Source: a virus (taxonomy: Duplodnaviria > Heunggongvirae > Uroviricota > Caudoviricetes). Taken from it: a DNA stretch of 13,322 bases. The stretch lies in IMG/VR virus record IMGVR_UViG_2740892369_000029. One strand, 5' to 3'. The position numbers and the translations under genes were made by a program. Position 1 is the first letter of the stretch; the number at the start of each line of letters is the position of its first letter. Below the pieces are notes generated by a model that saw only the letters and a program-made list of their open reading frames with translations, made no database searches and had not been told where the DNA came from. Below, in pieces: positions 4,502 to 6,535 of the stretch.

Positions 4502-4677
4502 CTAAGCAATGGGATTTTAATACATAACGAGCATCTGTCCACGCAAGTTAACAATTGCCTTGGCTCGATATTTTGGTTTCTAGTGCATATATGCTGATCT
4601 TCTCTTCGTTGATCTGATCTTACCCACCAATAGTGGACACAGGACTAAGTGAGTAAACTCTCAACCAGAGGTGACTC

Positions 4678-4977
4678 ATGACAAAACCAGTATCAATCAG
4701 CAAGAAGCCCCGTGAACAACATTCGCCTGAATTTCGTAACGAAGCCCTGAAACTCGCTGAACGCATCGGTGTGGCCGCCGCAGCCCGTGAACTCAGCCTT
4801 TATGAATCTCAGCTTTATGCCTGGCGCAGTAAACAGCAGCAACAAATGAGTTCGTCAGAGCGCGAAAGCGAACTGGCCGCTGAAAATGTCCGCCTTAAAC
4901 GACAACTGGCGGAGCAGGCTGAGGAACTGGCCATCCTCCAAAAGGCCGCGACATACTTCGCGAATCGCCTGAAATGA
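4678..4977 (+). CDS. IS3-family transposase OrfA (InsE-like helix-turn-helix/leucine-zipper protein), 99 aa
   Basis: Protein [32 protein letters not shown]...[27 protein letters not shown] is about 80% identical to IS3 InsE as I remember it. Its stop overlaps the orfB ATG (ATGAAGTATG) in the -1 frame. Confidence 0.9.
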
Positions 4978-5817
4978 AGTATGTCTTCATCGAAAATCAT
5001 CGGGCAGAGTTCTGCATCAAAGCGATGTGTCGTGTACTTCGGGTTGCCCGCAGCGGCTGGTATGTCTGGCTCAGGCGTCGTCACCAGATGAGCCTTCGCC
5101 AACAGTTTCGGCTCACCTGCGATGCCGCTGTCCATAAGGCATTCTTTGAGGCAAAGCAGCGATACGGTGCTCCCCGCCTTGCTGACGAACTGCCGGAGTT
5201 CAATATTAAAACCATTGCCGCCAGCCTGCGTCGTCAGGGGCTGCGGGCGAAAGTTCAGCCCGGTCAGCTACCGTGCACATGGCCTGCCCGTATTGGAGAA
5301 TCTGCTGGAGCAGGACTTCAGCGCCAGAGGCCCGAACCAGAAGTGGGCGGGTGACATCACGTACTTGCGTACCGATGAGGGCTGGTTGTATCTCGCAGTA
5401 GTCATCGACCTGTGGTCACGCGCCGTCATTGGCTGGTCGATGTCACCGCGAATGACAGCACAACTGGCCTGTGATGCACTACAAATGGCGTTGTGGCGGA
5501 GAAGACGCCCGGAAAGCGTCATTGTTCATACGGACCGTGGTGGTCAATACTGTTCAGGGGATTATCAGGCGCTGCTGAAGCGACACAACCTGCGTGGCAG
5601 TATGAGTGCGAAAGGCTACTGTTATGACAATGCCTGTGTGGAAAGCTTCTTTCATTCGCTGAAGGTGGAATGTATCCACGGGGAACGCTTTAGCAGCCGG
5701 GAAATAATGCGGGCAACGGTGTTTAATTATATCGAGTGTGATTACAATCGCTGGCGTCGTCACAGTGCCTGTGGCGGTCTCAGCCCGGAACAATTTGAAA
5801 ACCATAATCTCGCTTAG
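4974..5817 (+). pseudogene. IS3-family transposase OrfB (InsF-like DDE catalytic domain) disrupted by an internal frameshift
   Basis: The reading frame starting at 4974 ([13 protein letters not shown]...LRRQGLRAK) matches the InsF N-terminus, then loses similarity and stops at 5354. InsF similarity resumes in another frame (...[24 protein letters not shown]...DRGGQYCS...[10 protein letters not shown]...) through to 5817. The break lies near 5245-5260, consistent with a small deletion relative to IS3. Confidence 0.75.
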
Positions 5818-6535
5818 GGCCGTGTCCACATTACGTGGGTAGGATCAATTTTCCTGATGACCCCATCGACATAGTATTTTTTCAAAGCAAGAATTGCCTT
5901 CTCGCTATGTATTCCTGATAGCTTGATCAGGATATCAAAGTCTCTTTCAGATATATTCCCCTTTGTCATGTGTCACTCCATGAATCAAATTTCATAGTAA
6001 TCAATCTTTCTTTGATCGACTTATAGATAATAAGATCAGAAATGATAAAAAAGTAACGCATATTTCTTCTCGTCATGTCTACTTATAAAATTCAAATGAA
6101 CTAACCTGAACTACTTACACTGGAATATCATTATATTGGAATAATTATAAAACTGAACAAAATGGTCAATGTAATCTGGTTAATTTATAAATATTTACAT
6201 TGCGTGATGATATTTAATTCCAGTGTTAAGTAATGTCACATGCCTATTATTGGTTACTACTTTGTAGGTGTTTTGGTTCGGCGTTAATATCATTGGTCAT
6301 AATCACCTGTGAAAGTTTATTCTTGAAATGTTATAGGTATATTACTTGCAATTAAAAATGAGAAATTTATTATTATTGTGTTTTGCAAATATAATAATTA
6401 AAAATTTATTATAAATTATGATTAGAATTGACAATATAAAAGAATGATAAAACTCAATATGAAAATAATTATCATCTGGTTTGATACTTTTGCTGTTGAT
6501 TACAGGAATAAAGTGTCAGAATAATATTGTTATTG

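Follow-up and report, generated by a model that had tools for sequence, protein, structure and literature searches.

Members of the IS3 family carry two overlapping genes, orfA (encoding an HTH protein) and orfB (encoding the DDE/rve domain), with orfB in the −1 phase and the two joined by programmed frameshifting, and they generate a target-site duplication of 3 bp, occasionally of 4 bp. When an IS lacks such a duplication, IS-IS recombination and adjacent deletion are the usual causes (PMC11708052), and deletions of near-IS length with 0 to 4 nt of microhomology have been described for the loss of copy-out-paste-in elements promoted by the transposase or by the IS-excision enhancer (IEE) (bioRxiv 10.1101/2023.06.07.543989). 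Here we analyzed a DNA stretch of 13,322 nucleotides (the window; virus record IMGVR_UViG_2740892369_000029), in which an earlier note had recognized a degenerate IS3-like element, some 25 bp shorter than canonical IS3, with a frameshifted orfB and unlike 3-bp flanks. Both the element and the mechanism discussed below are already known.

Positions 4615 to 5847 (+ strand) hold a defective IS3-family element of 1233 bp with TG...CA termini, which could be aligned over its full length with intact ISEc16, the reference being the RefSeq-annotated copy on plasmid p48B2a. The element starts with TGATCTTACCC at 4615 and ends with GGGTAGGATCA at 5847, and similarity to the p48B2a copy was lost immediately beyond both termini, which bore out the ends given in the earlier note. 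Identity with the intact 1244-bp ISEc16 was 99.2% (10 substitutions and one 11-bp gap) and with many plasmid ISEc16 copies 97.7 to 98.3%, gaps counted, whereas K-12 IS3A (1258 bp) was 80.9% identical, plus 2-bp and 12-bp indels. On these alignments the element is assigned to ISEc16 and not to IS3; RefSeq labels the window copy as "IS3 family transposase, frameshifted" (pseudogene). ISEc16 is 14 bp shorter than IS3 through the 2-bp and 12-bp indels, and the 25-bp shortfall against IS3, which we found as noted earlier, is the sum of this difference and an 11-bp deletion; with ISEc16 as the proper comparator, the true deficit thus amounts to 11 bp. The left terminal inverted repeat (4615 to 4654, + strand, starting with TGATCTTACCCAC) was compared with the reverse complement of the right one (5808 to 5847, + strand, ending with GTGGGTAGGATCA), and about 30 of 40 positions matched between the arms; the right repeat is also kept in the chimeric IS of UTME-7 described below.

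The orfA gene (4678 to 4977, + strand) is an intact reading frame of 99 aa, the product of which matched Pfam HTH_Tnp_1 (E = 1.2e-9) and differed from the reference ISEc16 OrfA at three amino acids. The start of orfB at 4974 overlaps the orfA stop (ATGA), and CAA AAG at 4939 to 4944 is, going by the family, presumably the slippery site of orfA/orfB. The 5′ part of orfB forms a 126-aa ORF (4974 to 5354, + strand), which is native as far as about 5250; beyond this point it is out of frame, and it terminates at 5354. The bases missing at 5250 to 5254 (+ strand; alignment columns 667 to 677) are the 11 bp AAGCCAGCCGG of intact ISEc16, and since an AAG repeat flanks the deletion, its exact placement within these positions is ambiguous. 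This deletion accounts for the orfB frameshift that had been proposed for the element and leaves the DDE (rve) catalytic domain in another frame (5251 to 5817, + strand), the translation of which agrees with intact OrfB from FSPVSYRAH through the end; the equivalent called product gave matches to Pfam rve, rve_2, and rve_3. The window copy is immobile unless complemented in trans.

The 3-bp flanks differ and form no direct repeat, as can be seen in the sequence and had been pointed out before: ATC stands on the left (4612 to 4614), outside the papB-like gene, and ATT on the right (5848 to 5850), as part of the native papB gene, where it reads AAT in the sense direction. Neither an alternative pair of ends with a perfect direct repeat nor an intact orfB was found at the locus. 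Among 11 other independent ISEc16 copies (loci L002, L010, L012, and L013 to L020), a perfect 3-bp duplication was present in two (CCT and GTT), two of the three flanking bases matched in four, and one or none matched in five. The four partial matches compare with about 1.5 expected by chance, a slight excess in too small a sample. Because only 2 of the 11 copies show a perfect duplication, its absence alone is weak evidence of rearrangement; the CCT and GTT duplications nevertheless indicated that the 3-bp rule of the family holds, with rearrangement explaining the absence in the window.

The right flank of the element lies in a gene for a PapB/FocB-like regulator, of which codons 1 to 40 are left (5848 to 5969, − strand): the start codon is at 5969, the native codons run to 5848, and the IS cuts the gene after codon 40. 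The papB-like ORF of 51 aa annotated in the window is thus this remnant fused to IS sequence, as it extends into the IS by 11 codons, to 5814. Against Pfam PapB (PF03333), the remnant scored 41.7 bits (cut-off, 29.4) over profile positions 19 to 57 of 91 only, whereas intact 76-aa homologues covered positions 19 to 88 of 91, with 65.8 bits for the Salmonella protein. E. coli versions stop at about positions 57 to 63, with the exception of Eco_23-2667, where the gene is intact (76 aa). The last third of the PapB domain is gone and is not encoded to the left of the IS either; 36 codons are lost from the end of papB, along with all that came after them. Judged by the profile and the homologues, the gene descends from the PapB/FocB family, and what the window contains of it is a truncated remnant.

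Searching complete E. coli genomes with the Salmonella sequence downstream of the junction gave one match, Eco_23-2667, whose near-isogenic island is without the IS. There, argW is followed by the integrase, the AT-rich tract, the intact papB gene, an HTH regulator, an autotransporter, and fimbrial genes. It was 98.7% identical to the window from 8615 to 5848, and the homology ended exactly at 5848: the site reads AGGAAAAT|AGCTTGC in Eco_23-2667 and AGGAAAAT|IS in the window, with GATCAACGAAG on the far side of the IS. Salmonella argW islands are homologous to the window in the integrase (90.6%), in parts of the AT-rich tract, and in the papB 5′ part (84%), and their homology ended at the same breakpoint, exactly at 5848. 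The right flank agrees with AGGAAAAT in intact E. coli papB and with AGAAAAAT in Salmonella papB. On the left side, the sequence downstream of the 786-aa HSDR_N gene reads ...CTCTTCGTTGATC and then TGATCTTACC at the junction, and the spacer between the stop codon of that gene and the IS (4502 to 4614) had no similarity to the region past papB codon 41 in Eco_23-2667 or Salmonella; in all cases it directly precedes the IS or a scar of IS loss. The breakpoint at 5848 and the intact papB gene together indicated that the ATT flank is original papB sequence and that the left flank is foreign.

The element resides in a genomic island at the argW tRNA gene, which in relatives is ordered as fadL, mlaA, yfdC, argW, integrase (396 aa), AT-rich tract, papB-like gene, and IS, followed by genes for the 786-aa HSDR_N protein, a 338-aa protein, a DEAD helicase, a BrxC/D-like ATPase, and a TerB protein. 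The 338-aa gene of Eco_23-2667, with 97.1% identity to window 62 to 1654, lies together with the helicase, ATPase, and TerB genes about 46 to 56 kb from argW in the same orientation, such that a deletion inside one composite island would place this cluster beside the integrase module. Eco_23-2667 is without the 786-aa gene and has a partial integrase, an FRG-domain protein, and a protein kinase instead, and its homology on the side of the 338-aa gene stops near window 1791. Since the 786-aa gene is absent there, the exact ancestor cannot be reconstructed, and an exchange with another island could have taken place instead of a simple internal deletion. The 786-aa gene (2141 to 4501; region about 1791 to 4614) is itself a replaceable module, and its nearest homologues outside E. 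coli, in an Enterobacteriaceae isolate and alphaproteobacteria, are only 44 to 66% identical; its context in other species was considered as a guide to the native setting and set aside, as the nearest homologue, at 66% identity, offered no usable DNA homology. PADLOC assigned no system to the 786-aa and 338-aa cargo proteins.

In the window, a P22-like prophage (torI at 8689 to 8889, early genes rightward) separates argW from the island. The last 15 nt of argW (CTGCAGGGGACACCA; 8601 to 8615, − strand) form an att core between this prophage and the island integrase, indicating that two elements integrated in tandem at argW, and homology to prophage-free relatives stops at 8615. The island integrase (7235 to 8452, − strand) is split by an internal stop into ORFs at 7760 to 8452 and 7235 to 7726, and it is intact, with 396 aa, in the relatives L009, L031 to L033, L048, and L049. 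The split integrase and the dead IS together point to a decaying, immobilized island. The AT-rich tract (5970 to 7230), which separates the papB-like start codon from the 3′ end of the integrase gene, has 26 to 32% GC and contains no ORF of at least 50 aa; it is 98.7% conserved in E. coli relatives, with patches of 82 to 84% in Salmonella islands, and the papB-like gene may have its regulatory region here. Scans of the window for tRNA genes and Rfam families gave no matches.

All nine window-type loci that could be read share this 1233-bp copy (0 to 1 substitutions), its deletion junction, and its flanks, and many complete E. coli genomes, among them O26, O103, and O111 strains, carry an identical copy at this locus. 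A search of 5426 complete E. coli genomes found the island flanks in 245 and the uninterrupted site, represented by a synthetic join of both flanks, in none. All 10 contexts of the exact 786-aa protein carry the IS, and loci with this copy include islands with and without a neighboring prophage and with the integrase either intact or split. The ISEc16 copy is an old fossil fixed in the island lineage. Strain 11368 (E. coli O26:H11) has a second IS3-family element (L001 5910 to 7123), annotated with an AL1L pseudoknot, which splits the 786-aa gene, and IS66-family elements in place of the helicase, ATPase, and TerB genes upstream of the 338-aa gene.

A sister allele in UTME-7 has a right junction and a 51-aa fusion ORF identical to those of the window. 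Its IS (L047 3743 to 5000; 1258 bp) is of the IS3 type at every informative site in alignment columns 4 to 1093 and of the ISEc16 type at 17 of 17 consecutive informative sites in columns 1098 to 1258, and its left neighbor is an IS fragment plus an autotransporter, with the flank CAG. The pattern of informative sites is explained by a single clean crossover about 160 bp from the right end, between parents that are only 81% identical. The IS3/ISEc16 chimera is thus direct proof that IS-IS recombination has occurred at this very copy.

Rare alleles, in the strains SRR10207506, SRR5438292, SRR30008579, and GCA_045005515.2, are without the IS. L003 and L004 read CGTTG|TTCCTG, having lost ATC, the IS, and ATT (1239 bp) with no microhomology, while the loss in L009 amounts to 1241 bp, with a microhomology of 2 nt, and L040 corresponds to the UTME-7 type minus 1257 bp (of an IS of 1258 bp) with a 2-nt CA microhomology; these junctions lie at about 8118 in L003, 260 in L004, 6119 in L009, and 5122 in L040. 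Of the ancestral papB bases, the filled allele keeps AGGAAAAT, L003 AGGAA, and L009 AGGAAA. As the filled allele retains more of these bases, the IS-bearing junction is the older one and the IS-less alleles are derived. L003 and L004 were considered as the preinsertion state and rejected, because they are missing 3 bp on each side together with ancestral papB bases. From the junctions, the IS-less alleles are read as later excision scars.

Taken together, these data are very probably explained by insertion of ISEc16 into papB, loss of the DNA to its left, and then the 11-bp deletion in orfB. The ancestral island would have had the order argW, integrase, AT-rich tract, papB, HTH regulator, and autotransporter/fimbriae, and ISEc16 would have inserted into the papB-like gene at ...AGGAAAAT|AGC... 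with duplication of ATT. The DNA left of the IS, comprising the papB 3′ third and probably tens of kilobases of the island, would then have been removed, most likely when the element recombined homologously with another ISEc16 copy in direct orientation, situated just past the 786-aa HSDR_N gene and flanked by ATC; a transposase-driven adjacent deletion would be the alternative route. The outcome would be a single IS with the original ATT of papB on its right and a foreign ATC on its left, which explains the missing duplication, and the loss of the left-hand DNA would have brought the 786-aa/338-aa cargo beside the integrase module secondarily. Later, an 11-bp slippage deletion between AAG repeats would have inactivated the transposase, and the fossil copy would have become fixed in the island lineage, with a few lineages subsequently losing it and keeping small scars. 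The earlier note had suggested an IS-mediated deletion or recombination, a view that gains support from the Eco_23-2667/Salmonella breakpoint, the truncated papB gene, and the UTME-7 chimera, and its proposal that the juxtaposition of cargo and integrase is secondary is likewise strengthened by the remote position of the cluster in Eco_23-2667.

Complete genomes, protein-indexed assemblies, and metagenomes yielded no primary insertion (papB::ISEc16 with ATT on both sides), and the same collections yielded neither the postulated second ISEc16 copy nor an uninterrupted left flank. A metagenome scan for the primary-insertion junction (papB 3′ part, ATT, and left inverted repeat; ...GCAAGCTATT|TGATCTTACCCACC) gave 0 matches, and one for the left flank gave four, in all of which the IS follows directly. 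Since the primary insertion and the second copy were not found, we infer the second copy and the deletion size. The order of events is an inference as well.

If the comparative data are ignored, the flanks ATC and ATT, which agree at two of three positions, are compatible with a decayed duplication, i.e., a simple ISEc16 insertion at an AT(C/T) target, the papB-like gene being short by nature, with a later point mutation in one copy of the duplication, no deletion, and the cargo always beside papB. Joining the flanks also gives an open frame of 61 aa, a 60-aa version of which is called in IS-less contigs. This frame, however, raises the Pfam PapB score by just 0.8 bit, and its match ends at profile position 62 of 91, whereas intact E. 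coli and Salmonella homologues go on with ...RKIACFDSNLSQSYFS... and reach position 88, for which reasons the restored ORF was rejected as a genuine PapB. Moreover, the 98.7% DNA homology breaks off at the IS end with an unrelated sequence as the left flank, and the C-terminal peptide NEEKISIYALETKISSQGNC occurs in a collection of 5.8 billion proteins only in the IS-loss scar alleles, which makes a decayed duplication extremely improbable. A different order of events, in which papB codon 40 was first fused by an unrelated illegitimate recombination to the sequence beyond the 786-aa gene (the L003 or L009 state) and ISEc16 inserted at that junction afterwards by coincidence, would accommodate the IS-less contigs with the same gene order (L003, L004, and L009). 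Yet the filled allele has ATC, the IS, and ATT between CGTTG and TTCCTG, which no normal insertion into CGTTGTTCCTG can give, and the extra ATT restores the match to ancestral papB (AGGAAAAT), which would happen about once in 64 times at random. In addition, the L003 and L009 junctions differ, as fits independent losses, UTME-7 and L040 form the same pair of filled allele and scar with other cargo, and the filled allele is present in 245 complete genomes and about 8000 collection blocks against one or two contigs for each scar. A junction older than the IS is thus highly unlikely.

The same outcome could also have been reached without homologous exchange between two resident copies, in a single transposase-driven event: the ISEc16 copy in papB would have caused an adjacent deletion or undergone a "sloppy" strand transfer, possibly with the help of the IEE of EHEC strains. 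Adjacent deletions often cause an IS without duplication (PMC11708052), deletions promoted by IEE and transposase and starting at IS3-family ends have been described in EHEC (bioRxiv 10.1101/2023.06.07.543989), and no second ISEc16 copy was found. On the other hand, one-step deletion of donor flanks is not expected of copy-out-paste-in elements (a point taken up in bioRxiv 10.1101/2023.06.07.543989), and the UTME-7 chimera shows that homologous exchange between IS copies operates at this site. We regard the single event as unlikely, though it deserves to be kept in view. The two routes are not separable from sequence alone, and recombination between two ISEc16 copies, the most likely route, is preferred.

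At least five different sequences abut the papB junction: defence genes, an autotransporter (with the chimeric IS), a segment with Hha and AlpA genes, an inverted IS3, and the intact gene. In L043 and L044 (about 5112), the break in papB′ lies 6 nt earlier, and the Hha/AlpA segment follows it. In the short metagenome contigs L041 (about 2928) and L042 (about 2767), a true IS3 left end in the opposite orientation abuts papB′ (AGGAAAA|TGATCTTACCCAGC), a state that could be an assembly chimera. We tentatively propose, as a possibility of somewhat less than even weight, that the IS in papB is a recurrent exchange point, at which argW islands swap cargo behind a constant module of integrase, AT-rich tract, and papB 5′ part, and that later near-IS-length excision hides the IS origin of the junction.

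For the reading of this island, an integrase beside the 786-aa and 338-aa genes is no evidence that they were acquired jointly as one integrative unit. The locus is a worked example of an IS without a duplication marking a large deletion, and of later IS loss hiding the origin of a junction, neither of which is new. What it adds is modest: the adjacency of cargo and integrase is demonstrably secondary, and the junction was reused and, in related islands, later erased. Its relevance is mainly to annotation and to the reading of island history.

Compared with described systems, the window element shares its termini, the overlapping orfA/orfB layout, and the HTH and rve domains with ISEc16 and differs from the ISEc16 reference by the 11-bp orfB deletion and the lack of a 3-bp duplication. 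K-12 IS3 is of the same family, with the same gene layout and near-identical outermost bases (TGATC...GATCA), and at 80.9% identity it is a distinct element. The tiny scars of the IS-less alleles resemble those of IEE-promoted excision of IS3-family elements in EHEC and the near-IS-length losses of ISApl1 from Tn6330 (bioRxiv 10.1101/2023.06.07.543989); in contrast to the IEE excision system, the scars here are known from sequences only, and they occur in relatives rather than in the window. The IS-Del mutations of the Lenski long-term lines (PMC11708052) likewise have one original and one foreign flank, a gene cut at the IS end, and a large block missing, whereas the event in the window is ancient and fixed in an island lineage, its IS has decayed, and the partner copy is no longer observable.
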